Assembly: GCA_050116155.1 (NCBI GenBank)
Contig: JASFPE010000001.1
Location: 1 to 45,115, forward strand
DNA from: Desulfobacterales bacterium
GTDB lineage: Bacteria > Desulfobacterota > Desulfobacteria > Desulfobacterales > JAHEIW01
Length of the DNA: 45,115 bases
Direction of reading: 5' to 3'
The notes below the pieces were generated by a model. It saw only the letters and a list, made by a program, of their open reading frames with translations, did not search any database and was not told where the DNA came from. Positions 1,923 to 39,243 of the stretch are shown here, in pieces (the first letter of the stretch is position 1; each line of letters opens with the position of its first letter). Both the position numbers and the translations under genes were made by a program.

Positions 1923-1978
1923 TTTGCGGGAAATATAAGGGGCTTAAAGCAGAGAATATATTTTATTATCAACGATCA

Positions 1979-2081
1979 GATGCTCGATGCTCGATACTCG
2001 ATGATTGAATTGTTGGCATGTAGTCCATTGAAATAAAATCGAGGACGAGCCGTTAACGAGCATCAAGCATCTAGTATCGAG
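1979..2081. repeat. Intergenic element with inverted tandem-heptamer arms (GATGCTC x3 / GAGCATC-like x3)
   Basis: Left arm gatgctc-gatgctc-gatactc-gatg (1979-2003). Right arm gagcatc-aagcatc-tagtatc-gag (2058-2081) carries the complementary heptamers. Same architecture as the other heptamer-armed elements in this window. Confidence 0.55.
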
Positions 2082-2129
2082 AACGGCGCATTGACGACAA
2101 ATTGTTGATAAGGTATCGCTAAAGACAGA

Positions 2130-3323
2130 ATGAAGCCGAATCCATTTTTACAGGAAGCCGGAAACCTTCTTAACCAGATGCGGGAAATCCGCAGGGATCT
2201 CCACCAGCATCCCGAGCTCGGAACCCAGGAGGTTCGAACATCGCGGATTGTCGCTGATTATTTAAAGCATCTCGGACTCGAGGTACGCACCGGCGTCGGC
2301 GGTTACGGGGTCGTTGGCCTGCTGTCTACCCGGGAAGCGGACAACTGTGTTGCCCTGCGGGCGGATATGGATGCCCTTCCCATGGAAGAGAAAAATAGCG
2401 TCCCCTATGCCTCGGTCAAGCGCGGGGTCGCGCATTGCTGCGGCCACGACGGGCATACGGCTATTTTATTGGGGGCTGCCAACCTGTTGTGTAAATTTTC
2501 GGATTCTCTCGAAGGCAACGTAAAGTTCCTTTTTCAGCCCAGTGAAGACAAGGCTCCCGGGGGAGCCATTCCCATGATAGCCGATGGCGTCCTCAGAGAT
2601 CCTGTTGTCGATGGCATCTTTTCGCTGCACCTGTGTCCGGATTTGGCCCAGGGAACCATCGGGATAAAATCCGGCTTCAGCACGATTTCATCGGCTGGAT
2701 TTATCTTGAATATGATCGGAAAGGGCGGCCATGTGGCCAACCCCCATGAAAGCGTGGATCCCGTCATGATGGCCGGGATGGTGATCATGGCCGGTCAAAC
2801 CATCGTCTCCAGAAGAATAGATCCCCAGGATCCCACGATCATCTCATTTTGTAGCGTTAACGGCGGAACGGCCAGCAATATTATTCCTGACGAAGTCACG
2901 CTGACGGGCACGATCCGAACCCTCAATCCTGAAAAGCGAGAGGAGCTGGCCGCATGTCTCGACGAGGTGGCCCAGGGGGTTGCCCGCAGCAGCGGGGGAG
3001 CCTGCCGGCTCACGGTGAAGATGGAGTATCCCGCGGTGTTCAACCACCCGGAGCTGGCAGCGCAATTAAGGGATTCGGCGGCGAAAATTATGACGGCCGA
3101 TAACGTGATCGACATGCAATCCCCCAGCATGACCGGAGAAGACGTGTCCTACTTCCATCAGAAAGTCCCGGGGGCTCACTGGCTCCTGGGAACCTCAAAT
3201 CCCGCCATGAATTTCACCCATCCCCTTCATAGCCCGTTATTTAATTTTGACGAAGAGGTCATGCCTCTCGGCGCGGCGATTCATGCCTGTTGCGCGGTCG
3301 ATTTCCTGAGCAACAGGCAATAA
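2130..3323 (+). CDS. M20-family amidohydrolase (N-acyl-amino-acid / hippurate hydrolase-like)
   Basis: 397 aa. Typical M20D blocks are present: HQHPELGTQE, ALRADMDALP, HCCGHDGHTA. Confidence 0.85.
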   Translation: MKPNPFLQEAGNLLNQMREIRRDLHQHPELGTQEVRTSRIVADYLKHLGLEVRTGVGGYGVVGLLSTREADNCVALRADMDALPMEEKNSVPYASVKRGVAHCCGHDGHTAILLGAANLLCKFSDSLEGNVKFLFQPSEDKAPGGAIPMIADGVLRDPVVDGIFSLHLCPDLAQGTIGIKSGFSTISSAGFILNMIGKGGHVANPHESVDPVMMAGMVIMAGQTIVSRRIDPQDPTIISFCSVNGGTASNIIPDEVTLTGTIRTLNPEKREELAACLDEVAQGVARSSGGACRLTVKMEYPAVFNHPELAAQLRDSAAKIMTADNVIDMQSPSMTGEDVSYFHQKVPGAHWLLGTSNPAMNFTHPLHSPLFNFDEEVMPLGAAIHACCAVDFLSNRQ

Positions 3324-3420
3324 AAAAAAGGGGGGGCAGGTAAGTTGGCTTTCTCTCATCTGAATGTCTTCCCCTCATCGGTCTAATGTAGGCTGTAGGT
3401 CTAAAAAGGAGGGCCACCAT

Positions 3421-3612
3421 ATGATGGGCGACTTTCCCATTGACTCACCAGGGGAAATTCGTTACATTTCGCCTCACAAAAGGGACTTATTATCATTTCT
3501 CATCAGGAAAGGTTTTGTTGGGAATAGTGGAGATCTTTTTACGGAAGCTCTGCTTTACTATTCCAGTCGGGGCAAAATAAACAACTTAATAAAATGGCAA
3601 GGGAGGTGGTAA
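3421..3612 (+). CDS. Small hypothetical protein (63 aa)
   Basis: An internal ATG of the 3364..3612 ORF is preceded by AAGGAGGG with 7-nt spacing. It lies between the M20 gene and the TAXI binding-protein gene. No recognisable family. Confidence 0.4.
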   Translation: MMGDFPIDSPGEIRYISPHKRDLLSFLIRKGFVGNSGDLFTEALLYYSSRGKINNLIKWQGRW

Positions 3613-3676
3613 TTTTTGGTGTAGATAGTTCTGAACGCGAAGATCTTAAATCAAGAATAAAGAAAAGGAGCTAAAA

Positions 3677-4759
3677 ATGAAGAAACTTAAATTGGGATTG
3701 GTTTTGTTACTGGCCCTGCTGTTAGTATCGGTATTTGTTTTATCTGGCCCTGCTGCGGCAGCTGAGAAAAAAATGTGGCGATGGGGAACCTCTAATCCAG
3801 GGGCCTACGGTTACAGAGTAGGCGCTTTCATGTCAGATTTCCTCCGAAGGGGTCTGCCGGATTACGACGTTACCGTTTACCCATTTGCGACAACCACTGC
3901 AAACATCAAGAGCTTTCTCGTGGGTGATCTGGAATCCGTGTATTCGGCTGAGCCGGGATTGAGAAAATTGTACGCGTTTGTAAAACCATTTGAAGGCTTT
4001 GAACCCAACGTAAAGCAAATGCCGGTACAGTCTTTCTGGAGCTACACCATGGAGACACATATATTGACTTTACCGGAGAACAAAGACAAATTCCGCAGCT
4101 GGGATGATTTGAACGGCAAAAAAATCTATATGACCAAGTCGGGATACATGAACAATATCAACATCCACAGGGCAATGGAGGACGTCTGTGGCCTGGATAT
4201 CGAGCACGTCGAAATTGATATGTCGAAGGCCGCGGATGCTCTAAGAGCGGGAACCATAGACGCCACCGCAGCTTACACAACGGCTCTGGTCTCGCTGGCT
4301 GGCTGGCTCAAGGTGCTTGATGTGGCAACTCCCCTGCAGGGAGTGAATCCAACCCCGGAACAAATCAAGAAGCTTACAGCGGCCGGTTTTGCCCCCGCGA
4401 AGATCAACATGAAGAAAGCATATACCAGAGACCTGGGAGTGGATGAGCTCTATGGCGTGCCTTTTTACTTCGGTTACCACCACAGTCTCAATTTCCCGGC
4501 AGAGGACGTTTATAGAACACTCAAAGTATTTGAAGCCGCAGCGGCTGATCTAACCAGGCTGGACCCCGGATTCGGACCTCTGGCTGCAGACTTCGCCGGG
4601 TTCCAGGTCAAGGGGATCCAAAGCATTCCCGAGATGCCAGTACATCCGGGATTGGCGAAGTATCTGAAGGAAAAGGGCTTGTGGGATTCATCCTGGATAA
4701 TAGCTACCGACGCAACGATCAAGGAAGCGATAAAGGCGATGAAAGCCAAGGCGAAATGA
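3677..4759 (+). CDS. TRAP transporter solute receptor, TAXI family
   Basis: 360 aa. N-terminal signal peptide (MKKLKLGLVLLLALLLVSVFVLSGPAAAA), RBS AAGGAG upstream, and a fused TRAP permease follows. TAXI-like core (WGTSNPGAYGY...TTTANIKSF). Confidence 0.75.
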   Translation: MKKLKLGLVLLLALLLVSVFVLSGPAAAAEKKMWRWGTSNPGAYGYRVGAFMSDFLRRGLPDYDVTVYPFATTTANIKSFLVGDLESVYSAEPGLRKLYAFVKPFEGFEPNVKQMPVQSFWSYTMETHILTLPENKDKFRSWDDLNGKKIYMTKSGYMNNINIHRAMEDVCGLDIEHVEIDMSKAADALRAGTIDATAAYTTALVSLAGWLKVLDVATPLQGVNPTPEQIKKLTAAGFAPAKINMKKAYTRDLGVDELYGVPFYFGYHHSLNFPAEDVYRTLKVFEAAAADLTRLDPGFGPLAADFAGFQVKGIQSIPEMPVHPGLAKYLKEKGLWDSSWIIATDATIKEAIKAMKAKAK

Positions 4760-4805
4760 TCTTTTTGGAAAAAGTAAGGAGTCGTTAAGCGCTCATCATG
4801 GTGGG

Positions 4806-4850
4806 CTCACCCCTGTAAAAGGTCGAAAAGGGGTGAGTTCACTCTTTTCT
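4806..4850 (+). terminator. Hairpin plus T-rich tail downstream of the TAXI receptor gene (possible intra-operon attenuating terminator)
   Basis: ctcacccct (4806-4814) pairs with aggggtgag (4829-4837), giving a 9-bp stem. It is followed by ttcactcttttct. Confidence 0.45.
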
Positions 4851-4854
4851 AGAG

Positions 4855-5017
4855 GCTGTTTCAAAATTGTAGATGGCATTCACGGGTTCGCCGCAGGCGG
4901 ACCGATGCGGTTTAAAAGCGGAGTCCCGGCTTACAGGGGGGTGAGCAGCTTATTTTAAACCGAATCGCAACGCAGTCCCGCCAACGGCGGGAACGCCAGA
5001 TGCAATTTTGAAACAGC
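4855..5017. repeat. About 163-nt nested-palindromic element closed by a perfect 15-bp inverted repeat
   Basis: gctgtttcaaaattg (4855-4869) is the exact reverse complement of caattttgaaacagc (5003-5017). An inner pair is cggtttaaaa / ttttaaaccg. Small GC hairpins are also present (cccgcc-aac-ggcggg). Confidence 0.6.
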
Positions 5018-5043
5018 TTTTAAACACCGTAGGGAGCGAACAG

Positions 5044-7020
5044 ATGGAAAAAAATACGTCATCAAATAGAGCGAATTCATTGGCTGAAATGCGTAAATTC
5101 ATAATCCCCTCCTATCTTATTGCCACTGTCGTCTATTTAATTTTTTCGCTACATTATTTCATGACCGGCTTGGGGGGAACCATGCTCCTTGGCGTAACTC
5201 TTGTGCCGATGGCCTACGTGCTGTGGGTATTGAATTTCTTTGTCGCCGGAGAGCTGCCGTATCCCCGTCTGGGACTTAAACCCAATATTGCCATCGCCGG
5301 CGTTTACATCGCTATGTGCATCTTTTCGCTCATATACATGCGCGTGGAGTTTGATGCCCTCATTTATGACAGAGCAGGTTTCTTCAACACGACTGACAAA
5401 ATCGTAGGAGCGATGATGCTGGGTCTCGTACTCGAATACACCCGCCGGGACCATGGCCTGCTCTTTTGGCTCATCCTGTTTCTCATGCTCTATTCCGTTT
5501 ACGGGCGGATTTTCCCGGGTATACTCGGTCATCCCGGCGTCTCCTGGACAAGAGTTATTACATCTTCTTCCATTGAGATCTCATTGGGCCTCTTTGGAAC
5601 GTATGCCCAGATCGGGGTCGGCGTTATCGCGGCATTTTTCATGTTTTTGGGAATTGCACAGGGATTTGGTGTTCAGGAATCTATTATCAAAACATTCACC
5701 GGGATATTTGCTAAACGTAAAAGCCTCATCCCCCAAACGGCGGTGGTGACTTCGATGGCAATTGCTACCTGTAGTGGATCGGGAGCAGCGAATGCAGCCA
5801 TCACCGGGCAATACACCATACCGTTGATGAAAAAAGCAGGTTTTCCCGCTCTTCACGCCGGTGCTGTGGAAGCTTCAGCTTCGCTAGGCGGCCTGCTCAT
5901 GCCACCGGTCATGGCAATCGCCGGTTTCCTCATGGCTGACTTTCTCGGCGTGACGTATTTCGAGGTTATCGCTCGGGGATATGCGCCGGCACTCATTTTC
6001 TTTGGCATCATATCCCTATCGGTTTACCTCTTTACAGCGCGCTTCCTGCGGGGAAAGGGAAGCCGCCCGGATTCAGCAGTGGTTTCCGTTATCGAAAGAT
6101 TCTCCAAAATGGACGTGGTCAACACGGCGGTGTTCTTTGCCTTCATCGGAGTTTTGATCTTTTTGATGGGTGTGCTTTGGTACGAAGCATCCAGAGCCGC
6201 ACTTAACATTGCGCTCGGTCTCTTTATCACCGCCTCCCTGTTCCGCATATATCTCCATCCCGGGACGATCTGGGATAAGATAAAGGAATGGGCGATGTGT
6301 TTGCGCCGGGCCTTAGAGGGATTTGCCGGAGTCACTGCTCCGCTGGTTCTCTTGCTCGCCATGCTCGGGGTGATGGTGAATATGTTCGTGGTTAGTGGAT
6401 GGATGATTAAGCTAATGGGACTGCTGGCAACGGTCGGAGAATTTCATGTCGTAGCCCTTATCGGAGTGGGGTTCGCCATTGGGGTCTTCTTAGGGCTGGG
6501 AATACCTCCGTCGGCCTGTTACATCCTCTCAGCTGTGATCGTCATCCCGCCGATGACACGAATCGGGATCAACCCCTGGGTAGCTCATTTCTTCTTATTT
6601 TTCATAGCGGTCATATCCGAATATTCGCCACCCACATCACTCGTGGCTGCGGTTGCTTCCCGTATTTCAGGTGCCTCCTTCATGAAGACGATGATGGTCA
6701 CGCTGCAAATATCTCTTCCTTTTTTCTTCCTCACATTCGCGATTTTCAATTGGGATATTTTGTTGTTAAAACCCGGTTGGGCACAACTGGCTGCTCTGGG
6801 TGTGCTAATAATTGGATGCTCGACAGCAGCTGCCGCCATCCACGGTAATCTTTTTAAACGTAAAATGTATGATCTTCCTGCAAGGTTTTTAGTCCTCCTG
6901 ATATCGCTATTTATCTTGTTCTATCCTAAAGGTATCCTTTCAGCATTGGCATTGATACCCGCCATAGCTATGATCGTCCTCGTGATTCGGCAGACTGAAA
7001 AAACATCGGTATCTTCTTAG
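5044..7020 (+). CDS. TRAP transporter fused permease (TAXI-associated, DctQM-like fusion)
   Basis: About 658 aa, highly hydrophobic and polytopic, directly downstream of the TAXI receptor. I chose ATG 5044 (GGGAG 6-7 nt upstream) over the ORF-track TTG at 5008, which lies inside the palindromic element. Confidence 0.8.
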   Translation: MEKNTSSNRANSLAEMRKFIIPSYLIATVVYLIFSLHYFMTGLGGTMLLGVTLVPMAYVLWVLNFFVAGELPYPRLGLKPNIAIAGVYIAMCIFSLIYMRVEFDALIYDRAGFFNTTDKIVGAMMLGLVLEYTRRDHGLLFWLILFLMLYSVYGRIFPGILGHPGVSWTRVITSSSIEISLGLFGTYAQIGVGVIAAFFMFLGIAQGFGVQESIIKTFTGIFAKRKSLIPQTAVVTSMAIATCSGSGAANAAITGQYTIPLMKKAGFPALHAGAVEASASLGGLLMPPVMAIAGFLMADFLGVTYFEVIARGYAPALIFFGIISLSVYLFTARFLRGKGSRPDSAVVSVIERFSKMDVVNTAVFFAFIGVLIFLMGVLWYEASRAALNIALGLFITASLFRIYLHPGTIWDKIKEWAMCLRRALEGFAGVTAPLVLLLAMLGVMVNMFVVSGWMIKLMGLLATVGEFHVVALIGVGFAIGVFLGLGIPPSACYILSAVIVIPPMTRIGINPWVAHFFLFFIAVISEYSPPTSLVAAVASRISGASFMKTMMVTLQISLPFFFLTFAIFNWDILLLKPGWAQLAALGVLIIGCSTAAAAIHGNLFKRKMYDLPARFLVLLISLFILFYPKGILSALALIPAIAMIVLVIRQTEKTSVSS

Positions 7021-7085: not shown

Positions 7086-7712
7086 TCAATGGTGTATCCG
7101 ACGTTCATTGCTGTCCGGATAAGGATACTCCATATGCCGGGCCGTAGCCCGGGCGATATTTTCACCGAAGTATCGGGCTACCACCTTGAGTGCCATATCG
7201 ATGCCCGCTGAGATGCCTGCCGACGTCACCACGTGGCCGTCTTCGACGACATGTTTTTGGAATTCCACAGTCACCTCCGGAAAGGCATCACGCATCCAGT
7301 TTAACGATCGCCAGTGAGTGGTCGCGTGCAGCCCGTTCAGCAGCCCGGCGAATCCCAACAGCATCGATCCGGTACAAACAGAAGTCAGTGTTTCGACTTC
7401 CGCTGCGCGAGCGCGCAGCCATTCAAGCATGGTCGGGTTGTTCAATTCCTTACGCGTTCCCCAGCCCCCGGGTACAACAAGGATATCAAGGGGAGGACAG
7501 TTCTCAAAAGTGTAATCTGGAATCACTTTCATGTTGCCTGTCGTCGTGACAGGCTCAGGATACTCAGCCACCAACCATACTTCAAAGGGTGCAGGTTCTT
7601 CTCTGCGCTTCTCTTCATTAAGACGAGCGACGGAGAAAACCTCAAACGGACCACAAAAGTCGAGCACTTCGATGTCTTCAAAAAGGACGATCCCAACACG
7701 TTTTTTCTCCAA
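7086..7712 (-). CDS. DJ-1/PfpI family protein (class I glutamine-amidotransferase-like fold)
   Basis: 208 aa. VGIVLFEDIEVLDFCGPFEVF and the nucleophile-elbow Cys in SVCTGSMLL. TTG start with GGAGG 6 nt upstream. Confidence 0.8.
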   Translation of the reverse strand: MEKKRVGIVLFEDIEVLDFCGPFEVFSVARLNEEKRREEPAPFEVWLVAEYPEPVTTTGNMKVIPDYTFENCPPLDILVVPGGWGTRKELNNPTMLEWLRARAAEVETLTSVCTGSMLLGFAGLLNGLHATTHWRSLNWMRDAFPEVTVEFQKHVVEDGHVVTSAGISAGIDMALKVVARYFGENIARATARHMEYPYPDSNERRIHH

Positions 7713-7954: not shown

Positions 7955-8890
7955 TCAGGCCTGGCTTTTTGCCATATAGGCTTCCAGTTTTCCGACGCCG
8001 AGGGAAAATGTCAGGGTCATCACCAGATACAGTGCGGTGATGGTAATCCAGATTTCGATGGTGAGATAGGTGGAGGCCATTAATTGCGTGCCCTGGTAGG
8101 ATAACTCCTGGATCGATATTACCGAAACGATGGCCGAGTCTTTGATCAGAGAGATGAACTGCCCGGCCATGGCCGGTAAGAGCCGTTGCATGGCCTGGGG
8201 CAGGATAATGTGCCGCATGGTATGATATTTTGACAGGCCCAGCGTATAGGAGGCTTCCCATTGACCTTTTTCCACCGATTCGATGCCGGCCCGCACGATT
8301 TCCGTGATATAGGCGCCTTCAAAAATGGCCAGCGTGAAAAGCGCTGAGATGAAAGCAGACGCGAATTGCGGCGGTGAAAAGAGCGCCGCAAACAGGCGCT
8401 GGGTTCCCGAAGAGCTGGATCTGAGAAAATCATCAAGACCGATGATCGGCATGATCTGGTCGCTGATGAAGAAATAGAAAATAAAGATAATAACCAAAGG
8501 CGGCAGGTTGCGCATGAGCTCGACATAGGAGCGCGCGATCATTCTGTGAAAGAGGCTTTTGCTGACCCGCAGCAATCCCATCGTGGTGCCGAGGATGATA
8601 GCCAGAAAGGTCCCCCAGAAGCTCAACCGCAGGGTGGTCAACAGCCCGTGGATCAGGTAGTTAGATACCCACTTTCCGGATTCGGCATCGTAACGAAAGA
8701 GATACTGGGGGATGATTCCCCATTGCCAGTTATAGTTGAGCTTGACTTTGACCTGATACACCACATACACCAGGGCACCAAGCAGCGCGAGCAATACAAA
8801 AACGTCAAGCGTCGTAATCTTACTTTTCTTTTGCAGCACAGTATTTCTCGTATTTCCTTTACAACAAAGAACTAGTGTTGTGTTTCGCAA
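7955..8890 (-). CDS. Polar amino-acid ABC transporter permease (HisM/GlnP family)
   Basis: 311 aa. It is a paralogue of 11038..11859, sharing NYNWQWG..PQYLF and the EAA-loop region GQWEASYTLGLS. The start codon is uncertain (TTG at 8890, no clear RBS). Confidence 0.8.
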   Translation of the reverse strand: MRNTTLVLCCKGNTRNTVLQKKSKITTLDVFVLLALLGALVYVVYQVKVKLNYNWQWGIIPQYLFRYDAESGKWVSNYLIHGLLTTLRLSFWGTFLAIILGTTMGLLRVSKSLFHRMIARSYVELMRNLPPLVIIFIFYFFISDQIMPIIGLDDFLRSSSSGTQRLFAALFSPPQFASAFISALFTLAIFEGAYITEIVRAGIESVEKGQWEASYTLGLSKYHTMRHIILPQAMQRLLPAMAGQFISLIKDSAIVSVISIQELSYQGTQLMASTYLTIEIWITITALYLVMTLTFSLGVGKLEAYMAKSQA

Positions 8891-8918
8891 GTAATCTATA
8901 AATCATGGCTTTATTTTA

Positions 8919-9000
8919 GGTTTCAGGTTTCGGGTGTCAGGTGTCAGGCCACGGGTCATCAGTTCGTAATCCTGACACCTGAACACTGACACCTGAAACC
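8919..9000. repeat. GTGTCAG/GTTTCAG heptamer-armed palindromic element
   Basis: Left arm ggtttcaggtttcgggtgtcaggtgtcagg (8919-8948). Right arm cctgacacctgaacactgacacctgaaacc (8971-9000). The outer 10 bp and inner 10 bp are complementary. A related copy is at 15060-15242. Confidence 0.8.
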
Positions 9001-9088
9001 CTAGACCTTGTGTTGTTTAAAGATCTCAACCGAACCCCAATATACTACACGACTTACGCAACATTTTTGTAGGTCATAATACTAAAAG

Positions 9089-9916
9089 CTATTCAATCAG
9101 ACTCTTCCAGTCCTTTGATTTGAACCAGTATGCGTATTTGCTTTGAATCCAACCGTTGTTTCGATTAATCTCAATCCAGTTGTTGATTAAGTTGATCGTA
9201 TCGACATCGCCTTTGCGCACACCAATGCCGATGGCCTCATACATCATGACTTCATCGTAAACCATGATGGTGTCCGGATAATCGATGGCCGTCGATGACG
9301 GCAGGGGTTGCGCAGAAACCATGGCGTGCACGTTTCCATTGCGCAGCTCCTGGACGGCCGCGGGTTCATCGTCAAATAAGCGGATTTTTGCCTTTGGAAA
9401 TTTTTGCTTGGCGGCAATTGCGGCCGTCGAACCCAACCTGGCGGCGATGGTGACATCGGGACTGTTGAAGTCGGAGACCTTAAAGCCGGCCGCTTTTTGT
9501 TTGTGCGCCATCAATCCCTGCTCCGTATAGTAATACGGTCTCGTGAAATTGATCTTGAGGTTTCGTTTGGTGGTGATGGTCATCCCACCGATCAGCACAT
9601 CAAACTTGCCGGTAATCAGGGCAGGGATAATCCCGGACCATTTCGTAGGCACAAACTCCACCTTGACGCCCAAATCCTCGGCCAGCTTTTTGGCGATATC
9701 GATCTCAAAGCCGATCAACTCACCTTTTTTATCTTTCATGGCCCAGGGCACGAAAACGTCCATCCCCACCTTAATGACGCCGCGCTTGGCGATCTGCTCG
9801 ATGGCGCTTTCTGCGGTCAGCTTTCTTTGGGTTTCCCCGGCAGAAGCCGTGGCAGCCAGGCCCAAGATAACCACACAAACCAGAACCATTCCTGAAACGA
9901 ATACTCTTTTTTTCAT
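9089..9916 (-). CDS. Polar amino-acid ABC transporter substrate-binding protein (family 3)
   Basis: 275 aa. Signal peptide MKKRVFVSGMVLVCVVILGLAATASA, strong RBS AAGGAGGG, and a typical SBP_bac_3 core (GFEIDIAKKLAEDLG...IPALITGKFDVLIGGMTIT). Confidence 0.85.
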   Translation of the reverse strand: MKKRVFVSGMVLVCVVILGLAATASAGETQRKLTAESAIEQIAKRGVIKVGMDVFVPWAMKDKKGELIGFEIDIAKKLAEDLGVKVEFVPTKWSGIIPALITGKFDVLIGGMTITTKRNLKINFTRPYYYTEQGLMAHKQKAAGFKVSDFNSPDVTIAARLGSTAAIAAKQKFPKAKIRLFDDEPAAVQELRNGNVHAMVSAQPLPSSTAIDYPDTIMVYDEVMMYEAIGIGVRKGDVDTINLINNWIEINRNNGWIQSKYAYWFKSKDWKSLIE

Positions 9917-9978
9917 TATGCCCTCCTTTTCAATAAGCTAGCTTTGATGAACTCTTAATAAGTCATTTTAATGTCTGG

Positions 9979-10213
9979 ATACCCGCCTTCGCGGGTATGA
10001 CTGCCTAGTTTCTATTTCATATTTATTTTTTTATTGTCATTCCCGCTTAGCAGACTGTGTCGTAATTCACAAAAGCGCTTAAATTCCGCCTGTCATGCCG
10101 GACTCGATCCGGCATCCAGTTGCATAATAATCTGAAAAAACTCTGGATTCCGGGTCAAGCCCGGAATGACAAAACAGCAATATGTGTCGTTTTGTCGATT
10201 ACGACACAGTCTC
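9979..10213. repeat. Composite hairpin-rich element inside the ABC operon
   Basis: Three 8-bp hairpins: atacccgc-cttc-gcgggtat (9979-9998), atgccgga-ctcga-tccggcat (about 10095-10115) and attccggg-tcaag-cccggaat (about 10146-10166). They share gtcat/atgac flanks. The last two lie between the arms of a perfect 14-bp inverted repeat, gactgtgtcgtaat (10053-10066) / attacgacacagtc (10199-10212). Confidence 0.7.
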
Positions 10214-10263
10214 CTAGTCAGGAATCCAGAAAACGAAATTTCACCTCCTTTCATCCTCTTTTT

Positions 10264-11016
10264 CTATAAAATCTGGCTGAGAAAAAGCTTTGTCCGCTCT
10301 TTCTGCGGGTTTGTGAAAAAATGCTCTGCCGTGCCTTCCTCGACAATATAGCCATCTTCCATAAAAATCACCCGGTCGCTGACTTCACGGGCAAATCCCA
10401 TTTCATGGGTTACCACGATCATGGTCATTCCTTCTCCGGCAAGGTTTTTCATAACGTCCAAAACTTCACCGATCATTTCAGGATCGAGAGCCGACGTGGC
10501 TTCATCGAACATCATGACTTTCGGATGCATTGCCAGGGCCCTGGCAATTGCCACCCGTTGCTGCTGCCCCCCGCTAAGCTGCGAAGGGTAACTGTCTGCC
10601 TTCTCCGGAATATTGACTTTCTTCAGGAGGTCCATGGCCATCTCTGTGGCCTCATCGTTGCTTTTTTTACGCACAAGCTTTGGGGCCAGGGTTATGTTTG
10701 CGAGCACGGTCTTATGGGGAAACAGATTAAACGACTGGAAAACCATTCCGACCTCTTTGCGGATCTCCCAACGGTTTTTCTTTTTTTCGTCAAGCGGGAC
10801 ATTGTCGATAACGATCGAGCCGCTATCGATCTCTTCCAATCCATTGAGACAACGCAAAAAGGTGGATTTCCCCGAACCGGACGGTCCGATGATGACCACC
10901 ACTTCACTGCGGCGTATTCTGGTGGAAAAGTCTCGCAAGGCACAAACGCCGTTGGGAAAGGTCTTGTTGATTTTGTCCACCGTAACGATATAATCACCGA
11001 GTTTCTTTTCTTGCAC
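10264..11016 (-). CDS. Polar amino-acid ABC transporter ATP-binding protein (GlnQ/HisP-like)
   Basis: 250 aa. Walker [10 protein letters not shown], signature [15 protein letters not shown], Walker [16 protein letters not shown] start with GGAGG 8 nt upstream. Confidence 0.92.
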
Positions 11017-11037
11017 CGACCGGTCCTCCCTGTGATA

Positions 11038-11859
11038 TTATGTCTGAATCCTGAATCGACTTTCCAGGAAATTGACAACAATAGATAGGGTTATCGTGAT
11101 AACCAGGTACATAAACGCAATCGTAAACCAGATCTCAAATGTCAGGAATGTTTCGGCGATAACCGCCCGGCCTTCCATGGTCAAATCATAAATAGCGATC
11201 GTGCTGACAAGGGCCGAGTCTTTGATCAAAGATATCGCCTGACTCGTCAGGGGCGGGAGAATGCGCCGGATCGCCTGGGGAAGGATGATGCAGCGGTATG
11301 TATCGAAGATACTAAAGCCCAGGCTGTGCGAGGCTTCCCACTGACCTTTGTGAATGGACACGATTCCCGCACGGAAAATCTCTGAGGCATAAGCTCCCTC
11401 AAAAAGGCTGAGTGCGATGACGCCTGCAGCAAAGCGGCTGAGGCCAAAAATGGGTGCCAGCACGAAGTAAAGGAAAAAGATTTGAACCAGCAGCGGGGTA
11501 TTTCGGATGAGCTCCAGATACGCCCTGGCAACGATTCTGGCAAATAAGGAGTCGGACAGGCGCAAGAGGGCGGTTACCAAACCGATGGTCATCGACAAAA
11601 CAAGGCCCCAGGCCGTAATGCGAAAGGTCATCACCAGGCCGAACATCAGGGGGCCGAAGAAAAATTCACCGTCTTGGAATTGAAATATATATTTGGGAAC
11701 CTGATACCATTGCCAGTTATAGCCGAGTTGCTGCGTGCCGCGAGCCATCACCCAGATCAGTACTGCCACCACCACCAAAAATTTGGTAATATCCATCACC
11801 GGAGAACGCTTCAGCCTCAACCAGTTCTGTTTGTATGATGGGGACATGCTAACTTCCAT
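11038..11859 (-). CDS. Polar amino-acid ABC transporter permease (second copy)
   Basis: Polytopic, with NWQWYQVPKYIF and GQWEASHSLGFS blocks like 7955..8890. The start is ambiguous: TTG 11868, ATG 11859 or ATG 11847. Confidence 0.8.
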   Translation of the reverse strand: MEVSMSPSYKQNWLRLKRSPVMDITKFLVVVAVLIWVMARGTQQLGYNWQWYQVPKYIFQFQDGEFFFGPLMFGLVMTFRITAWGLVLSMTIGLVTALLRLSDSLFARIVARAYLELIRNTPLLVQIFFLYFVLAPIFGLSRFAAGVIALSLFEGAYASEIFRAGIVSIHKGQWEASHSLGFSIFDTYRCIILPQAIRRILPPLTSQAISLIKDSALVSTIAIYDLTMEGRAVIAETFLTFEIWFTIAFMYLVITITLSIVVNFLESRFRIQT

Positions 11860-11916
11860 AGCCGACAATCAAGCCTTTGGAAAGGAAATTTTTGCTTTTT
11901 GTGGTATAAGTTTTTC

Positions 11917-13386
11917 TTATACGTCAAAGTTTTTGTTTAAAAGTGCTGTCTTTGCTTTTTTCCCAATTGCGGCGATGTTTTGCTGTACATCCGCCGGCAG
12001 GGATTCGCACGCATGGGATTTTAGGATCTCAATCGCCTTGCGGGTCACAATTTCACCATAGGTTTTTTGGCCTTCATCTTGCCAATGATTGAGACTGGCA
12101 CGGTTGGCAAACATGGGTCGCCAGTGCTCCTGTCGGTGGAGTTTGAGAGTCTGCGCTGAGGTGAGAAAATCGCCGCCCGGACCTACCTTCCGGATGACGT
12201 CCATGTCGATCCGATCCGCCCCGATAGCAAAGCCGTGTATTATTTTTTTGACATAACTGATGATTTCGGCACCCATCACGATTGCAGCCGGTGAACCGAT
12301 CAGCCCCTGGCCCAAATAACCAACGTCATGGACCAGGTTTGCACCATCCAGCGCGGCCATGAGTAGTGAAACGGATGCCTCCATACCTGCCTGCTGATCC
12401 AGGCAGTTGGCATCACTGACACCGGCTGTTCCCCACATGGGAATTTCATAATAATGGTAAAGATCTGCGCAGGCTGATAACGCCAACCGATATTCCGGGC
12501 ATGCATAGATTGGTGCCCCGGTTAACATGTCCATCGTGGAGATACCAAACCCGGAGATAATGGGCGCGCCTTTTGCCATCAATTGATGAAGCACAACGCC
12601 GCTCAATGCTTCGGCATTGGCAACGGTGATGGCGCCGGCCAGGGTCACCGGTCCGCTGGCGCCTGCAAGCATCCCCGGGGTATAGGTGACCGGAACTCTC
12701 TTTACGGCGCACAGAAAAAGCTTTTGCAATGCGCTGGAGGAGTGTGTCAGGGGACTCGTTGGTTCTGAATAATGAATTAAGAATGGCTTATGTCGCAGCC
12801 GATCTTTGCCCCCGGCGACGGCCTCTGCCATCTCGATGATGATAGCAAGGTCTTCTGAGCCGGCGGCCGTGAAAAAAATAGGTTTTATGGAATTTTCCAA
12901 CTCTGCTCTGAAGGACTCAATGTAAGCCAGATTGGCCGGAATATCTTGAGGATGGGCATAAGAAGCGATAAAATCAATATCCTCGAAATAATCGGCTATT
13001 CTGGCTGCATTGACAACGTCTTGCAACCGAGATGATCTTAATATACCGGTTTCCAGATCATAAGTTTCAAGAAGGTCTGTTCCCAGACCAAAGTGGACCT
13101 TATTTCCTTTCAGCTGCATGGCCTTAGCGGCATTGCGGTTGTATATAGTGATACTGGCAGGTGCGCTGTGAATGCAGGATTCCACCAACCCGCTGGGAAT
13201 CTGAATGTTACCATGGCCGTTTATCCGGCATCCGGCATTTTTCAGGAGTTGAATGCCTTCCGGGTGCATGATGCTAACGCCGATGTTCTCCAGAAGTTGT
13301 AGTGTCGCTTTATGAATTTCTTTGATTTGACCTTCAGTGAGGATCCGGTAGTTTGGAATGCACTGAGATCCAAAGCCCGTATTCAT
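11917..13386 (-). CDS. MttB-superfamily (trimethylamine methyltransferase family) corrinoid methyltransferase, non-pyrrolysine
   Basis: About 489 aa from ATG 13386 (GAAGGGGG RBS 7 nt upstream). Length and blocks are typical of the MttB family. The ORF is uninterrupted, with no in-frame TAG. It is adjacent to a corrinoid protein gene. Confidence 0.8.
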   Translation of the reverse strand: MNTGFGSQCIPNYRILTEGQIKEIHKATLQLLENIGVSIMHPEGIQLLKNAGCRINGHGNIQIPSGLVESCIHSAPASITIYNRNAAKAMQLKGNKVHFGLGTDLLETYDLETGILRSSRLQDVVNAARIADYFEDIDFIASYAHPQDIPANLAYIESFRAELENSIKPIFFTAAGSEDLAIIIEMAEAVAGGKDRLRHKPFLIHYSEPTSPLTHSSSALQKLFLCAVKRVPVTYTPGMLAGASGPVTLAGAITVANAEALSGVVLHQLMAKGAPIISGFGISTMDMLTGAPIYACPEYRLALSACADLYHYYEIPMWGTAGVSDANCLDQQAGMEASVSLLMAALDGANLVHDVGYLGQGLIGSPAAIVMGAEIISYVKKIIHGFAIGADRIDMDVIRKVGPGGDFLTSAQTLKLHRQEHWRPMFANRASLNHWQDEGQKTYGEIVTRKAIEILKSHACESLPADVQQNIAAIGKKAKTALLNKNFDV

Positions 13387-13480
13387 TGCGCAACCCCCTT
13401 CGGTAAGCGCCGAATTACAATCCGGTTTTAAGCATGTGTCCCACAATTACATTAAAAAAGTCGAACGGCTTGTCGAACCA

Positions 13481-13506
13481 TTTGTAATTTGGTGCTTGGA
13501 ATTTGG
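13481..13506. repeat. Solo arm of the AATTCCAAAT-type element
   Basis: tttgtaatttggtgcttggaatttgg matches 36808-36833 (tttgtaatttggtgcttgtaatttgg) at 25 of 26 positions. Confidence 0.75.
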
Positions 13507-13594
13507 ATTTTGCGAATTTCATCCTGAAAAAAAGTACTATTAAATCAATCAGCGTTTTATAAAGTACAGTCGGGATAATATACTTGAACCTATC

Positions 13595-14977
13595 TCAAAA
13601 TGGAAATTCGATTCCCATTTCAGACAGTTCATCTTTTACGCGATGATACATATCAAGATGTTCCGGAGTTGGAAGGGCCGAGGCCACATCGTAACATTCC
13701 TGATATTCTTTACCCTTGGGGGCATCTGCCGCGTTGTCTTCGTATTTCGACAAAAGCCTCAGGGCCAGCTCGTTGGCCTGTTCTCTTGTCATACCCTGTC
13801 GCGCAACCGCATGGCCTACCTCCATGCCAATCCTTGCCTCCAGCGGTGTTGCCCGATTTCTGTATTTATTGCGAGCGGAAGCCATTTCCCACAGGTGCCA
13901 TCCCGATACCGTGCTGACCAGGGCATGGCAGGCGGTTTCGTAAAAGACCATATCCGTCATGGGACCCGCATTTGAAAATCCGTTAGAGGTGTTGAGGAGT
14001 TTGCTGTTACGCGCCATGGCCTGGCCGGCCATACTAATCGGCCAAAGCAGTTCCCGGGTCGTATTGGAACCCCAATGGAGGTGAAAAGGGAAATGTTGGT
14101 TATAGATGGCTCCATGGATGCACAGGCCGCTGAGGCTGTAGGCGACCAGCGTCACGGCAACCCCTTCTGAGCCCAGACACCAGCCCCCGTATATAGGACC
14201 CGTGAGATTGCCGGTATAGCATCCATATTGGGCATAATGAACCACCCGGTTCAGCAGTGTATCGGCCGTTTTGAACTCGGAAAGCGTTCCAACCAGTCGT
14301 GAGTCTGTCGTTCGTACGCCCCACTCATTGTCGGACACGGCAATCTGGCCGGTGTCGTGTTCGGCGGTTCCGACGGCTACAAAAAATACCCCCGGTCGAC
14401 CGACTTGCTTGGCAGCCAGTCGAAGGTTGTAAATATGCTGGGTACAACCGTTGATTTCGGTGGGGGAGCCGGATGAGATCTTCTGGCCCATGGTATCCTC
14501 CAGGATGGGGGCACAAAAACCATCCAAAAGGGGCTCTTTAAGATAGGCGAGGCATATGGAATGGTGAAGATTCTCATCGCAGGTGATGTCCGGGCTGAAG
14601 ATGCAAAACGGCGGCTGCGGGTCCTCGACCTGGCGGTGTTTCCATAAGACCGCATCTTTTCCGGCACCCACCCAGTATGCGCCTTTTATCAGGTAGAGCG
14701 CCTCTTTGATTTCATCGTCTGAGACCTTGATGACGCGATGGGTGTCTGTGTTGTAAAGGCCCACGTCACGAAACAGCTCCCATCCGGCCTGCCACAGCCG
14801 GTCGGCCTGATCGTCGTCCGTGGGCAGGGGGATTTCAGGATCGTATTTTATCTCATACTTTTTTATGACTTCCTGAAGCTTGGGGGTGAATATTTTAGGC
14901 AAGAAATCATCTTCTTCACAATGTGGACCCGTATGGGATCGCTGCAGAATCTCCCAGAGACGGTAGGGGGTGGACAT
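13595..14977 (-). CDS. MtmB-family (monomethylamine methyltransferase-like) protein lacking pyrrolysine
   Basis: 460 aa with AAGGAGG 7 nt upstream of the ATG. Blocks recalled from archaeal MtmB: GLYNTDTHRVIKVSDDEI, GRPG (residues 193-196), HWGSNTTRE, and C-terminal GKEYQECYDV..TPEHL. The ORF is uninterrupted. Confidence 0.75.
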   Translation of the reverse strand: MSTPYRLWEILQRSHTGPHCEEDDFLPKIFTPKLQEVIKKYEIKYDPEIPLPTDDDQADRLWQAGWELFRDVGLYNTDTHRVIKVSDDEIKEALYLIKGAYWVGAGKDAVLWKHRQVEDPQPPFCIFSPDITCDENLHHSICLAYLKEPLLDGFCAPILEDTMGQKISSGSPTEINGCTQHIYNLRLAAKQVGRPGVFFVAVGTAEHDTGQIAVSDNEWGVRTTDSRLVGTLSEFKTADTLLNRVVHYAQYGCYTGNLTGPIYGGWCLGSEGVAVTLVAYSLSGLCIHGAIYNQHFPFHLHWGSNTTRELLWPISMAGQAMARNSKLLNTSNGFSNAGPMTDMVFYETACHALVSTVSGWHLWEMASARNKYRNRATPLEARIGMEVGHAVARQGMTREQANELALRLLSKYEDNAADAPKGKEYQECYDVASALPTPEHLDMYHRVKDELSEMGIEFPF

Positions 14978-15059
14978 GGTAAGGCCTCCTTACGTTTACA
15001 TTAATGCAATGATATGTGTATCAGTCAAATCACAAGCAGATTACCACAACTAATATTTA

Positions 15060-15242
15060 AGGTTTCAGGTTTCAGGTGTCAGGATTCAATAATTGAGGAA
15101 TTGAGGGATTTAGGAATTAGAATGACAGAATACCTTCAATACCTAAATTCCTGAATTTTTACCCCGTGAAATGCGAAGCCGATTTCACCGGGGCGCAATT
15201 CCTAAATTGGCCTGCTGACACCTGACACCTGACACCTGAAAC
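15060..15242. repeat. GTGTCAG/GTTTCAG heptamer-armed nested palindromic element (long copy)
   Basis: Outer arms are ggtttcaggtttcaggtgtcagg (15060-15082) and cctgctgacacctgacacctgacacctgaaacc (15210-15242). Inner arms are built from gaggaatt/aggaatt versus aattcct units. A central hairpin is ccccgtgaaat...atttcaccgggg. Confidence 0.8.
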
Positions 15243-15293
15243 CAAGAAAACCTGTTAAGACTGGCTAAGATATAATTTATTGAACGATGAGAT

Positions 15294-15932
15294 TTACGGC
15301 TTTTTTAAAAGTTCCTCCATCATTTTGGGAGCAGAGGTTGCATTTTCGCAATAAAGATCTGCGCCGATCATTTCCGCCCACTCCGGTCCCGTCGGTGCGC
15401 CACCAATGACGACTTTGTATTGATCTCTGAGCCCTTTTTCTTTTAGGAGTTCGATAATTTCCTTCTGTCCTGGCATGGTGGTGGTCATCAGCGATGATGC
15501 CCCGATGATATCCGCCCCCATGGCCTCCGCTTCCTTGATAAAAGTCAGTGAATCCACGTCATATCCCACATCTTTTACTTCGAATCCATTGGTCTCGAGC
15601 ATCAACTTCACAATATTCTTTCCAATTTCATGCAGATCACCTTTCACTACACCCAGGACGACTTTACCTTTGGAAGCCCCCTGTTCGCCGCTCTCCTGGA
15701 TCTTGGGGCGGATAATATCGACAACAGCTGTTAAGGCTTCTCCGGATAGCATTAATTGAGGCAGAAATATTTCCAGGCGGGCGAACAGCTCGCCAAGTTT
15801 GTTCATCGTTTCGGTAAGCGCGGCAATCATCTGGAGCGGATCATTGCCTTCTTCCAGAAGTTTACGGGCTATATCTTCGGCTTCACTTGTATTTCCGGAT
15901 TCCACAGCTTTGCAAAGCGTTTTGAATGGCAT
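15294..15932 (-). CDS. Cobalamin-binding corrinoid protein (MtmC/MttC/MtgC-like)
   Basis: About 212 aa from ATG 15932 (GGGAGG RBS 7 nt upstream). B12-binding DxHxxG motif in GDLHEIGKNIV, followed by a Rossmann-like GADIIGASSLMTTT block. Confidence 0.88.
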   Translation of the reverse strand: MPFKTLCKAVESGNTSEAEDIARKLLEEGNDPLQMIAALTETMNKLGELFARLEIFLPQLMLSGEALTAVVDIIRPKIQESGEQGASKGKVVLGVVKGDLHEIGKNIVKLMLETNGFEVKDVGYDVDSLTFIKEAEAMGADIIGASSLMTTTMPGQKEIIELLKEKGLRDQYKVVIGGAPTGPEWAEMIGADLYCENATSAPKMMEELLKKP

Positions 15933-16259
15933 AGTTAAACCTCCCTGTAACCCTAGGTTGCGCAAATTTTATAACTCATTTTGCACCACCTGCCAGTCCT
16001 TGTATACTTTGGCCGGTTTGCAAGTCAGAATATTGCGAGGCCAACAGGCGAAAGGAATGGTTATTTACCACAGGCGGGGCGGGTGGACAAAACGGGCTAA
16101 AACCTATAACGATCTTCTTTTGTTTGTCAATCGAAAATAAAGTTTTGTTAGCAGACCAACATAGGCTGTTGCGGCAATGAGCGCATCGCTCAGTCCATCT
16201 TTTGCTTGACCCGCCAGAGCTATTTCTCTATTAGTTTGCACGAAAGGGGGTATACTTCG

Positions 16260-17450
16260 ATGAATGCGAATATTTTCACGACCATCTTACCCAGGCAAGT
16301 ACATTTTGGATTCGGGGCCATCGAACTGGTTGGCGAAACGGCTAACGCACTTGGCGCCAAACGTGTTTTTATTGTTGCCGACCCGGGAGTGATTACCGCC
16401 GGACTGGTCGAACCCATCGCGGCTTCGCTCAAGGCTGCAAATCTATCCTATGTCGTCTACGACAAAGTGGTGCCCAATCCCGACACGCAATCGGTGGATG
16501 CGGCCGTCGGGGCGTTTGGTGACAGTCGCGCAGATCTTATCATTGGTCTTGGCGGAGGCAGCGGGCTGGATACTGCTAAAGCCGTAAGCCTGGTGGCCGG
16601 AGGCCCGCCGCAAGGCTGTGTGGCGGAATACTCGCCTTTTCTTGACGAGGCCAGCCGACCGATTCCCGCACCCAAAGATCTGCCCCCTGTCATCGCCATT
16701 CCCACCACTGCCGGTACCGGTAGCGAGGTTACCCCGTGGGCGATTATCACAGACACTGGGGCCAAATGTAAATTCGGGGTTGGCGGCGGTTCGGCCACGG
16801 TACCGACCGTTGCGCTGGTCGACCCCGAATTAACCTTGACGTTGCCATCATTTCTTACCGCGGCCACCGGCATTGATGCCCTCTCTCACTGTATCGAAGC
16901 CTATGTGTCAACCAATGAAAATCCGATGCTGGATCCGATGATTCTTTACGGGATTGAACTGATAGGTCGAAGTCTGCGGCTGGCCGTGGCCCAGGGAGAT
17001 AATCATGATGCCCGGCGAGACGTCATGCTGGGCTCGTTGATAGGCGGTATTGGAATTACGTCCAAGTGGCTTGGCGCTTGCCACGCGCTGGCGCATCCGC
17101 TTTCCAGCCTGGCCGGTATCCAGCATGGGATTGCCAACGCGTTGATGTTGCCCCACCAGATGGCTTACAGCCTGCCAGCTGCGTTGGATCGATATGCCCG
17201 CATCGCCGGGGCACTGGATATACCAAAGGCGGTCAGTGGGACAGTTCGGCAGCAGGCTAAGCAAGCCGTTGAGGCTGTCCGAGAACTGGCTGTGGACACA
17301 GGTTTGCCCACCCATCTGCGAGATGTCGGCGTTACCCCCGAAATGATTCCGGAGCTGGCGGCCGGCGCTTACCAGGACCGGAACTGGCCCAGTAATCCCC
17401 GCAGCGTCTCCCAGGAGGTCATGGAACAGTTGTATCGCCAGGCTTTATAG
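16260..17450 (+). CDS. Iron-containing alcohol dehydrogenase family protein
   Basis: About 396 aa from ATG 16260 (AAAGGGGG RBS). GGGSGLDTAKAV and the His-rich C-terminal metal site (ALSHCIEA, CHALAHPL). Confidence 0.85.
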   Translation: MNANIFTTILPRQVHFGFGAIELVGETANALGAKRVFIVADPGVITAGLVEPIAASLKAANLSYVVYDKVVPNPDTQSVDAAVGAFGDSRADLIIGLGGGSGLDTAKAVSLVAGGPPQGCVAEYSPFLDEASRPIPAPKDLPPVIAIPTTAGTGSEVTPWAIITDTGAKCKFGVGGGSATVPTVALVDPELTLTLPSFLTAATGIDALSHCIEAYVSTNENPMLDPMILYGIELIGRSLRLAVAQGDNHDARRDVMLGSLIGGIGITSKWLGACHALAHPLSSLAGIQHGIANALMLPHQMAYSLPAALDRYARIAGALDIPKAVSGTVRQQAKQAVEAVRELAVDTGLPTHLRDVGVTPEMIPELAAGAYQDRNWPSNPRSVSQEVMEQLYRQAL

Positions 17451-28044: not shown

Positions 28045-28131
28045 GGGAAATAGCAATCTCCATTACATCCCATCGCCGGTAGGTATTACCTCTCAAACAG
28101 ATCGATCATGAAATTTGACGGAGATCAGCGC

Positions 28132-30528: not shown

Positions 30529-30590
30529 CGTTATTCTCCTATTTTATCTTATTATGAAACTATCTATCTGCTGCGCCTTGCTTCAATGGA

Positions 30591-31550: not shown

Positions 31551-31719
31551 AAGATTCATCTCCTTTCATTAAAACGGGGTCACGACTGCCCGTTCGTTTA
31601 CTGTATCTATACTTTGAATGATAAAGATTTGCAACCGTACTGGCTCTGAACCAAATATCGGGGCCGATAAACGTTAAATCTTTTTGAAGGTGTTATGGTT
31701 TTTTTCAGGTGGAGAATGA

Positions 31720-36628: not shown

Positions 36629-36664
36629 AAGGTTTTACCTTCCCTATCCGTCAAGTGGTTTTGT

Positions 36665-36856: not shown

Positions 36857-36897
36857 AAATTTCACATTTACCGACCAAGCGTCTGTAACAGTATGAA

Positions 36898-38991: not shown

Positions 38992-39243
38992 GACGTTTCC
39001 TTTTTTTGACGCACGCATTGTTTCGTTTGCAATAAAAAGTCTTATAAGTGTCAGCAATCGAAATCAGCTTGAGAAAGCTCACGGGGAAAATAGAAGTGGC
39101 GCCCCCGGAATAGATGCCGTTATGTTAGCGGAAAAGGTGTTTATGGTCAAGAGTGCTTACCACGCCTTTCTTTGCTTGACATATCGTTGGTTTTCCCATT
39201 TAAGTTGTGTCCTGTTTTGTGATGATGGAGGATTATCCTGTCA

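Follow-up and report, generated by a model that had tools for sequence, protein, structure and literature searches.

What does a single corrinoid protein do beside two methyltransferases of unrelated folds and an importer of the amino-acid type? This question is raised by a row of seven genes, all on the minus strand (7955-15932), in the first 45,115 nucleotides of contig JASFPE010000001.1 (assembly GCA_050116155.1), a metagenomic contig of an uncultured marine Desulfobacterales bacterium; this whole stretch is hereafter called the window. The listing of open reading frames (ORFs), together with Pfam and NCBIfam scans, placed all seven genes where an initial annotation made from the sequence alone had put them, in the order corrinoid protein, MtmB-like methyltransferase, MttB-like methyltransferase, permease, ATPase, binding protein and permease, and an identical 15-kb JGI contig (L001) carries the same gene calls. 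The two methyltransferase genes had been described as flanking the corrinoid gene; the two folds and the single corrinoid gene are indeed there, but the corrinoid gene stands first in the row. With a probability of roughly 55%, we take the row to be part of a corrinoid-dependent N-demethylation system of this bacterium. The gene set is a conserved variant of the known corrinoid-dependent methyltransferase systems, and it is uncharacterised in the literature that we searched.

By scanning relatives at one genome per species, we found 80 loci, 73 of which hold an orthologue of the MtmB-like protein (at least 70% identity). They include closed chromosomes of metagenome-assembled genomes (MAGs), the Olavius Delta-1 symbiont and the cultured Desulfocicer vacuolatum DSM 3385 (L075), and neighbours were counted within 10 kb by tblastn mapping together with de novo clustering of all ORFs. 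The corrinoid gene is the immediate upstream neighbour of the MtmB-like gene in at least 64 of the 73 loci, the remaining loci being truncated or masked, and the corrinoid protein is thus the cognate partner of the MtmB-like enzyme. In the window, this protein (212 aa, 15294-15932) consists of a B12-binding_2 cap and a Rossmann B12-binding domain (Pfam), and its GDLHEIG stretch fits the DxHxxG motif. Both domains and the motif place it among the methyltransferase-cognate corrinoid proteins of the MtmC/MtbC/MttC/MtgC type, with NCBIfam scores that all stay below cut-off (200 bits vs 215 for TIGR02370, pyl_corrinoid; 192 for MtbC and 191 for MtgC).

The MtmB-like enzyme (460 aa, 13595-14977), our proposed substrate:corrinoid methyltransferase (MT1), belongs to the MtmB superfamily: residues 7-456 match positions 3-450 of the 450 of PF05369 with 310 bits, and the alignment to Methanosarcina barkeri MtmB (1NTH/1L2Q) has an E-value of 1e-60 over 452 residues. 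It is not a pyrrolysine-dependent MtmB, as its ORF is uninterrupted with no in-frame UAG, the position of the M. barkeri pyrrolysine (Pyl202) is aligned with the Val of FFVAVGTAEHD, and the NCBIfam scan of the protein gave no match. It thus shares with the methanogen MtmB/MtmC pair a full-length fold and the pairing with a corrinoid gene, and differs from it by an invariant AVGTAEHD in place of the pyrrolysine region. Homologues fall into 551 protein clusters, the best 120 of which are 71-91% identical, 460 aa long and mostly from Desulfobacterales and Spirochaetes MAGs. An exhaustive profile search returned 213 clusters (50% identity) with E < 1e-30, the nearest other one being an Aminicenantes sister at 54% identity and every other one at 38% or less.

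MtmB homologues without pyrrolysine have been recognised for a long time, but none had a demonstrated function until 2026, when one was shown for MtqB of Methanococcoides methylutens, the only characterised member, which acts on tetramethylammonium and choline with weak activity on monomethylamine (PMC13044021). The MtqB/MtqC pair of M. methylutens Q3c resembles that of the window in several respects: the enzyme is a pyrrolysine-free MtmB-superfamily protein of ~460 aa, its gene lies directly downstream of one for a corrinoid protein of ~212-216 aa annotated as dimethylamine-type, and both pairs presumably transfer a methyl group from an N-methyl compound to Co(I) (PMC13044021). In contrast, the window pair is bacterial rather than archaeal, its downstream acceptor cannot be coenzyme M, it is linked to an amino-acid-type ABC importer and an MttB-family enzyme, to which relatives add histidine or aromatic amino-acid catabolism, and its MtmB clade is remote from all others, as the identities above indicate. 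Judged by the names of the ten nearest clusters rather than by direct alignment, this clade appears to stand apart from MtqB: those clusters are bacterial or from Bathyarchaeota, and none is a Methanococcoides protein.

The initial annotation had asked whether the linkage of these genes is conserved in relatives. It recurs in many genomes and in several orders: within 10 kb of the MtmB-like gene, an MttB orthologue (at least 54% identity) is present in 28 of the 73 loci and absent in 45, and the same ABC importer (SBP_bac_3) is found nearby in 22. The three modules occur in at least seven orders or orientations across Desulfobacterales, Spirochaetota, Aminicenantes and other MAGs, and the search begun from MttB orthologues gave the same linkage picture. 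Other recurrent neighbours are URO-D/MtaA-family genes (30/73), a cytoplasmic molybdopterin oxidoreductase (23/73), Met_synt_B12-like genes (18/73), CobW-like GTPases (10/73) and RACo/AcsV-like activases (9/73). Full clusters are found in L066 and L087, the latter (on a 569-kb contig) with HutH, FTCD_C, HutI, GntR, corrinoid, MtmB-like, Met_synt_B12-like, URO-D, CobW-like, MttB-like and ABC importer genes. Two further loci (L085 and L086) carry the MttB orthologue without an MtmB-like gene.

Both methyltransferases are present in 28 loci, and 27 of these have a single corrinoid gene. We infer that one corrinoid protein is used by both the MtmB-like and the MttB-like enzymes, and such sharing across two unrelated methyltransferase superfamilies would be new. 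A precedent in organisation is Eubacterium limosum, in which MtpB, MtcB and MtyB share MtqC, MtqA and RamQ, with the second methyltransferase and the activase encoded elsewhere in the genome (PMC8604678). Like the system proposed here, it has several substrate-specific methyltransferases loading one corrinoid protein, and an unloading enzyme and activase away from them; unlike it, the window has candidates from the MtmB and the MttB superfamilies in one row with an importer, whereas the E. limosum loading enzymes all belong to the MttB superfamily.

The corrinoid/MtmB-like pair is duplicated in some relatives. Two corrinoid/MtmB modules stand side by side in L010 and L011, with a molybdopterin oxidoreductase gene between them; in the second, an MtmB paralogue (41% identity), an MttB (55% identity) and a separate ABC importer follow the gene order of the window, which suggests that related systems with different substrates form a family. 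The closest complete genome, CP070746.1 (Desulfobacterales bin36; L005 and L013), also has two corrinoid/MtmB-like pairs, ~1 Mb apart, and in the second one the match is limited to residues 1-424 and no importer is nearby.

The MttB-like enzyme (489 aa, 11917-13386), the second proposed MT1, belongs to the MttB superfamily by its match to PF06253 (341 bits, residues 27-494). It aligns with MtgB (2QNE/9YCE) at E = 1e-68 and with the trimethylamine methyltransferase 7XCL at 7e-62, and it is not a pyrrolysine-dependent MttB, since its ORF is uninterrupted and it reaches 396 bits on TIGR02369 against a cut-off of 525. In MtgB, glycine betaine is bound by Y97, R312, H348 and F356, and R312 is kept in every characterised MttB member, all of which use acidic quaternary amines (PMC13080624). 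In the window protein and all 28 orthologues these four residues are T, W, H and G, so that the protein does not group with the MtgB type, and glycine betaine was rejected as its substrate. The system of Desulfitobacterium hafniense (MtgB/MtgC/MtgA; 2QNE, 9YCE; PMC13080624) is therefore similar in combining a pyrrolysine-free TIM-barrel enzyme of the MttB superfamily with a DxHxxG corrinoid protein, and dissimilar in three of the four binding residues (Y97 to T, R312 to W, F356 to G) and in its MtgA, as no MtgA-type gene lies near the row and relatives carry URO-D-family genes. By replacing R312 with Trp, the clade departs from all characterised members, which speaks against a carboxylate betaine in the usual binding mode and weakens the initial proposal that this enzyme acts on the nitrogen of an amino-acid betaine.

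The MttB-like gene is also a newcomer at this position. The four nearest relatives (82-90% DNA identity) are colinear with the window over the corrinoid, MtmB-like and all four importer genes, but L005, L006, L008 and L009 lack, at this position, the 1.7-kb block 11871-13594 with the MttB-like gene and have only 6-161 bp in its place; L009 has its MttB orthologue upstream, in divergent orientation. The MttB-like gene is thus an insertion, and the single row of the window is a recent rearrangement, whose order converges on that in L017, L024 and L034 and, with paralogues, in L010 and L011. The core module consists of the corrinoid protein, the MtmB-like enzyme and the importer, and is a unit that exists without an adjacent MttB-like gene. 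Since the nearest relatives have the MtmB-like gene without the MttB-like one at this spot, the MtmB-like enzyme appears independent of any MttB-like product.

The importer is of the polar-amino-acid type, as had been proposed and as Pfam and NCBIfam scans confirmed, with two HisQ/HisM-type permeases, one HisP/GlnQ-type ATPase and one SBP_bac_3 protein, a composition shared with HisJQMP, ArtPIQMJ and EhuABCD. Permease 1 (HisQ/GlnP/EhuD type, 11038-11868) has a BPD_transp_1 domain with matches to GlnP, EhuD and EhuC, the ATPase (GlnQ/TcyN/EhuA type, 10264-11016) has an ABC_tran domain with 309 bits for GlnQ, 298 for TcyN and 291 for EhuA, and permease 2 (7955-8890) has a BPD_transp_1 domain and, in the JGI call, starts at 8839 for a length of 294 aa. 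All equivalog scores of the importer are below cut-off, so that no specific substrate name applies.

More can be said from the SBP_bac_3 binding protein (9089-9916; Pfam/NCBIfam). As a query, it returned 6288 proteins, the best 120 of which are at least 87% identical. Its best PDB match is 9E2B (E = 1.6e-94; 56% identical by tblastn), which is up to 69% identical to the cluster-linked binding proteins of other loci. This structure belongs to the same clade and is titled only 'ABC-type transporter, periplasmic subunit family 3', and our literature search for it found no paper on the structure. The next PDB matches are AncCDT-1, a reconstructed Arg-binder, and then the Lys-binder Ws0279 (bioRxiv 10.1101/157495). 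In our alignment, the carboxylate-binding Arg of these proteins is kept (GGMTITTKR) in all 24 cluster-linked orthologues. In contrast, the Asp of AncCDT-1 (TDSP) and Ws0279 (FDLP), which we take to be the binder of the alpha-ammonium group as in HisJ/LAO, is replaced by Ala, Ser, Thr or Leu in 24 of 24 orthologues (in motifs such as SAQP, ASAP, GSAP and QSLP) and by Ser in 9E2B. With the Arg present and the Asp replaced, the protein does not fall among the alpha-amino-acid binders of the HisJ/LAO/Ws0279 type, and the predicted site fits a carboxylate ligand in which the alpha-nitrogen is substituted or absent. A Trp in place of Phe in FVPWAM and a C-terminal YWF extension are also conserved in the clade. 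An AlphaFold model from a shallow alignment (pLDDT 44) was not used.

What the pair could act on is suggested by its neighbours in relatives. HutH, HutU and HutI, all above their NCBIfam equivalog cut-offs, are its neighbours in 11 loci from Desulfobacterales, as well as in L087 and L088; the FTCD_C cyclodeaminase domain is present among these loci too, and the pair there usually follows a GntR/UTRA regulator whose best match is HutC. A HisC-type aminotransferase and/or IorAB accompany it in 16 other loci, mostly from Spirochaetes, the two contexts overlapping in no locus. The Spirochaete operon consists of IclR, a HisC-family aminotransferase, the corrinoid protein, the MtmB-like enzyme, IorA, IorB and an ADP-forming acyl-CoA synthetase, often with a D-2-hydroxyacid dehydrogenase, an aldehyde:ferredoxin oxidoreductase or Opp/Dpp-type peptide importers nearby, and 10 of 11 aminotransferase loci lack an MttB orthologue. 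The MtmB-like proteins of the two contexts are ~80% identical, for which the simplest reading is one substrate with a free amino acid as product, which either the Hut pathway or transamination with oxidative decarboxylation would degrade. From these neighbours, L-histidine or an aromatic amino acid is most likely the demethylated product. Among the amino acids, only histidine fits both routes, which makes methylated histidine the leading candidate for the substrate, a tentative one against which the odds still run. The candidate forms are ring-methylated histidines set free from anserine, balenine or muscle proteins, N-alpha-methylhistidine and hercynine, possibly from ergothioneine. Literature searches on hercynine or methylhistidine with corrinoid methyltransferases returned no papers, a search on MtmB in Desulfobacterales or Olavius symbionts found nothing relevant, and PMC10418091, on mlp gene clusters, was set aside as not relevant.

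No enzyme that would unload or reactivate the corrinoid protein was found in the window. As the initial annotation had stated for MtgA/MtaA-like and RamA-like genes, tblastn and domain scans of the 45-kb window found no URO-D/MtaA-, RACo/RamA- or Met_synt_B12-like gene. No pterin-binding domain of the MtgA type was present among the window ORFs given a Pfam scan, the ORFs 40155-40796 and 42715-43383, scanned with NCBIfam only, had no NCBIfam match, and the CobW-like, Hut and HutC-like proteins of relatives gave no tblastn match in the window. With neither a second methyltransferase (MT2) nor a reductive activase in these 45 kb, the window does not hold a complete methylamine:tetrahydrofolate or methylamine:coenzyme M system. 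This absence had been regarded as unusual, which it is not: the candidates for the two functions in relatives are the URO-D-family and RACo/AcsV-like genes of the cluster, and E. limosum encodes both functions elsewhere (PMC8604678).

Together, these data suggest the following scheme. The ABC importer would take up a carboxylate-bearing, N-substituted amino-acid derivative, from which the MtmB-like enzyme would transfer a methyl group to the Co(I) of the adjacent corrinoid protein. The recently inserted MttB-like enzyme may provide a second loading route to this corrinoid protein, with methyl groups from another compound, which would be either a cationic N-methyl compound of a different kind or the first one in a more highly methylated form. 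The methyl-corrinoid would be unloaded by a methyltransferase encoded elsewhere, for which the URO-D/MtaA family of the relatives is a candidate, a RACo/AcsV-type activase, also encoded elsewhere, would keep the corrinoid protein active, and the methyl group would then enter C1 metabolism. The direction of methyl flow, the shared use of the corrinoid protein and the substrate are the parts of this scheme that we deduce from gene content and context.

Several points weigh against it. The loss of the carboxylate-binding Arg in the MttB-like clade does not suit an amino-acid betaine bound as in MtgB. MtqB prefers quaternary amines and has only low activity on monomethylamine (PMC13044021). None of the Hut, aminotransferase, URO-D and activase genes lies in the window, on which they bear by orthology only. 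We know of no proven precedent for the demethylation of secondary or tertiary amines without pyrrolysine, nor of indolepyruvate oxidoreductases that take imidazolepyruvate. Moreover, Hut genes feed tetrahydrofolate C1 metabolism via formiminoglutamate, and their adjacency could reflect shared C1 handling rather than a link between substrate and product. URO-D-family proteins can also serve as substrate-side methyltransferases, which leaves their unloading role that of a candidate. Finally, the large structured gaps and possible internal promoters mean that the genes of the row may not be co-transcribed.

The initial annotation had proposed the stepwise demethylation of a multiply N-methylated amino acid, for instance a proline, hydroxyproline or alanine betaine, in which the MttB-like enzyme removes the first methyl group of a betaine and the MtmB-like enzyme the last one of the same molecule. 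That an N-methyl amino acid is demethylated is plausible, and a free amino acid as product of the MtmB-like step agrees with the neighbours in relatives; the betaines named do not agree with a histidine or aromatic context, and neither the strict two-step order nor the dependence of the MtmB-like enzyme on an MttB-like product is supported. The gene order shared by the window, L017, L024 and L034 (and, with paralogues, L010 and L011), the free alpha-amino acid implied by the Spirochaete operons and the binding protein without its alpha-ammonium Asp would all suit such a pathway. However, the nearest relatives keep the MtmB-like gene and the importer without an MttB-like gene in the cluster, 45 of the 73 loci have no MttB orthologue within 10 kb, L085 and L086 have the converse, the MttB clade has Trp for the carboxylate-binding Arg, and the middle step from dimethyl to monomethyl has no assigned enzyme, which together make a strict stepwise scheme unlikely. 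The same loss of R312 would fit a non-acidic substrate, as if the MtmB-like protein were a bacterial MtqB, the MttB-like protein acted on another non-acidic quaternary amine and the importer were only loosely related to both. MtqB, the only characterised pyrrolysine-free MtmB, does use tetramethylammonium and choline beside a corrinoid protein annotated as MtbC-like (PMC13044021), pyl_corrinoid and MtbC are likewise the best-scoring models for the window corrinoid protein, and a divergent Fe-alcohol dehydrogenase (16206-17450) has its best match to the model of the choline dehydrogenase GbsB (320 bits vs a cut-off of 550). Yet no cluster except the Aminicenantes sister is more than 38% identical to the MtmB clade, with no Methanococcoides protein in the nearest ten, the dehydrogenase is not among the recurrent gene clusters of related loci, and both the Hut and aminotransferase/IorAB contexts and the carboxylate-binding Arg of the importer are left unexplained, so that we regard a choline or tetramethylammonium system as improbable.

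The row might also be a coincidence, in which an ordinary amino-acid importer and two independent methyltransferase genes are merely adjacent. The recent insertion of the MttB gene and the large repeat-filled gaps would suit that reading, and NCBIfam sets the importer components near Gln, cystine and Lys/Arg systems. A coincidence agrees poorly with three modules that recur in at least seven arrangements across phyla, with a specific and invariant change at the alpha-amine site in the importer-linked binding-protein clade, and with a single corrinoid gene in 27 of the 28 loci that have both methyltransferases, and we consider it highly improbable. We therefore keep corrinoid-dependent N-demethylation as the preferred reading. 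A bolder form of it would make the pair the first anaerobic cobalamin-dependent demethylase of methylated histidine, with the MttB-like and molybdopterin enzymes extending the system to more methylated or thiolated forms, and with the first sharing of a corrinoid protein across superfamilies; we hold this form to be quite doubtful.

The row had also been called a single operon. The genes do lie in a same-strand row, but one transcript is not established, with gaps of 316 bp between the corrinoid and MtmB-like genes, 208 bp, 347 bp between the ATPase and binding-protein genes, and about 200-250 bp. Clear minus-strand terminators were not found in the gaps by consensus scans, which returned only weak promoter-like matches and are themselves uninformative, and co-transcription is possible. 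Rfam and tRNA scans of the window gave no matches, hence no riboswitch and no Pyl-tRNA in it. As described initially, the three largest gaps hold palindromic elements rather than genes, and the JGI calls on the identical contig place no genes there either. One element has heptamer arms (GGTGTCA/GGTTTCA) and occurs between the corrinoid and MtmB-like genes (15056-15243) and, as a second copy, between the binding-protein and permease 2 genes (8914-9000); its heptamer pattern has 8 matches in the window, over both copies, vs 0.05 expected, and the larger copy has an RNA fold of -81 kcal/mol (z = -7.6). It is confined to the closest relatives (L006 and L009) and thus behaves as a lineage-specific miniature repeat. 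The inverted repeat between the ATPase and binding-protein genes (10039-10225, 36-nt arms) is distinct from it, REP-like, with hairpins of the GTCATTCCGG...CCGGAATCC type. Both types would form very stable RNA structures within the putative transcript.

Elsewhere in the window, a row on the plus strand (3-7020) converges on the cluster, with a molybdopterin oxidoreductase, an M20D amidohydrolase (CpsA-like, 2130-3323), a TAXI-TRAP binding protein (3677-4759) and a fused TRAP permease (5008-7020). The cytoplasmic molybdopterin oxidoreductase (3-1922, plus strand, cut by the window start; Pfam Molybdopterin and Molydop_binding), of the DMSO-reductase family, falls in the same cluster as the 690-aa protein of the 23 loci mentioned above. 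The recurrent enzyme is often accompanied by a 4Fe-4S ferredoxin and an NAD(P)H-flavin reductase, and lies between two MttB genes in the KSB3 contig L085. Its nearest structures are FdhF of the hydrogen-dependent CO2 reductase and acetylene hydratase, at about 220 bits. A role as formate dehydrogenase is unlikely, given 319 bits vs a cut-off of 666 and a Cys-Tyr (seen by eye) where Sec/Cys-His is expected.

The Fe-alcohol dehydrogenase (plus strand) and a stand-alone DJ-1/PfpI protein (7086-7712, minus strand), which resembles the N-terminal domain of GbdR/FtrA regulators, flank the cluster. Neither this GbsB-like dehydrogenase nor the DJ-1 gene recurs in related loci, and both were rejected as cluster members. 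Further away, a minus-strand group (27118-31559) encodes an uncharacterised glycyl-radical enzyme (28132-30528, PFL2/dehydratase type) together with its activase (27118-28056) and, at 30591-31559, an FMN-dependent dehydrogenase. The glycyl-radical enzyme was rejected as a choline trimethylamine-lyase (446 bits vs a cut-off of 1050) and, staying below every NCBIfam equivalog cut-off, as CutC, HypD or HpsG; the same enzyme-activase pair adjoins the MttB orthologue in L059. Another minus-strand group (35882-39057) holds a 719-aa aldehyde:ferredoxin oxidoreductase-like protein, with a weak C-terminal match, next to a 4Fe-4S protein and to membrane proteins of the UbiA type and carotenoid-synthase-like type.

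The MtmB-like clade is abundant in marine sediment metagenomes and very tightly conserved, at 71-93% identity. If its enzymes demethylate an N-methyl amino acid, this would add a new substrate class to cobalamin-dependent methylotrophy, reveal an unrecognised route by which sulfate reducers and spirochaetes use nitrogen-rich animal or algal metabolites, and show that methyltransferases of different superfamilies can use a corrinoid protein in common. The system is tractable, with a cultured carrier, Desulfocicer vacuolatum DSM 3385, and a crystal structure, 9E2B, from the binding-protein clade. Should the substrate be methylated histidine, the histidine set free in marine sulfate reducers and spirochaetes would go to the Hut or the aminotransferase/IorAB route, and the methyl group to C1 metabolism.

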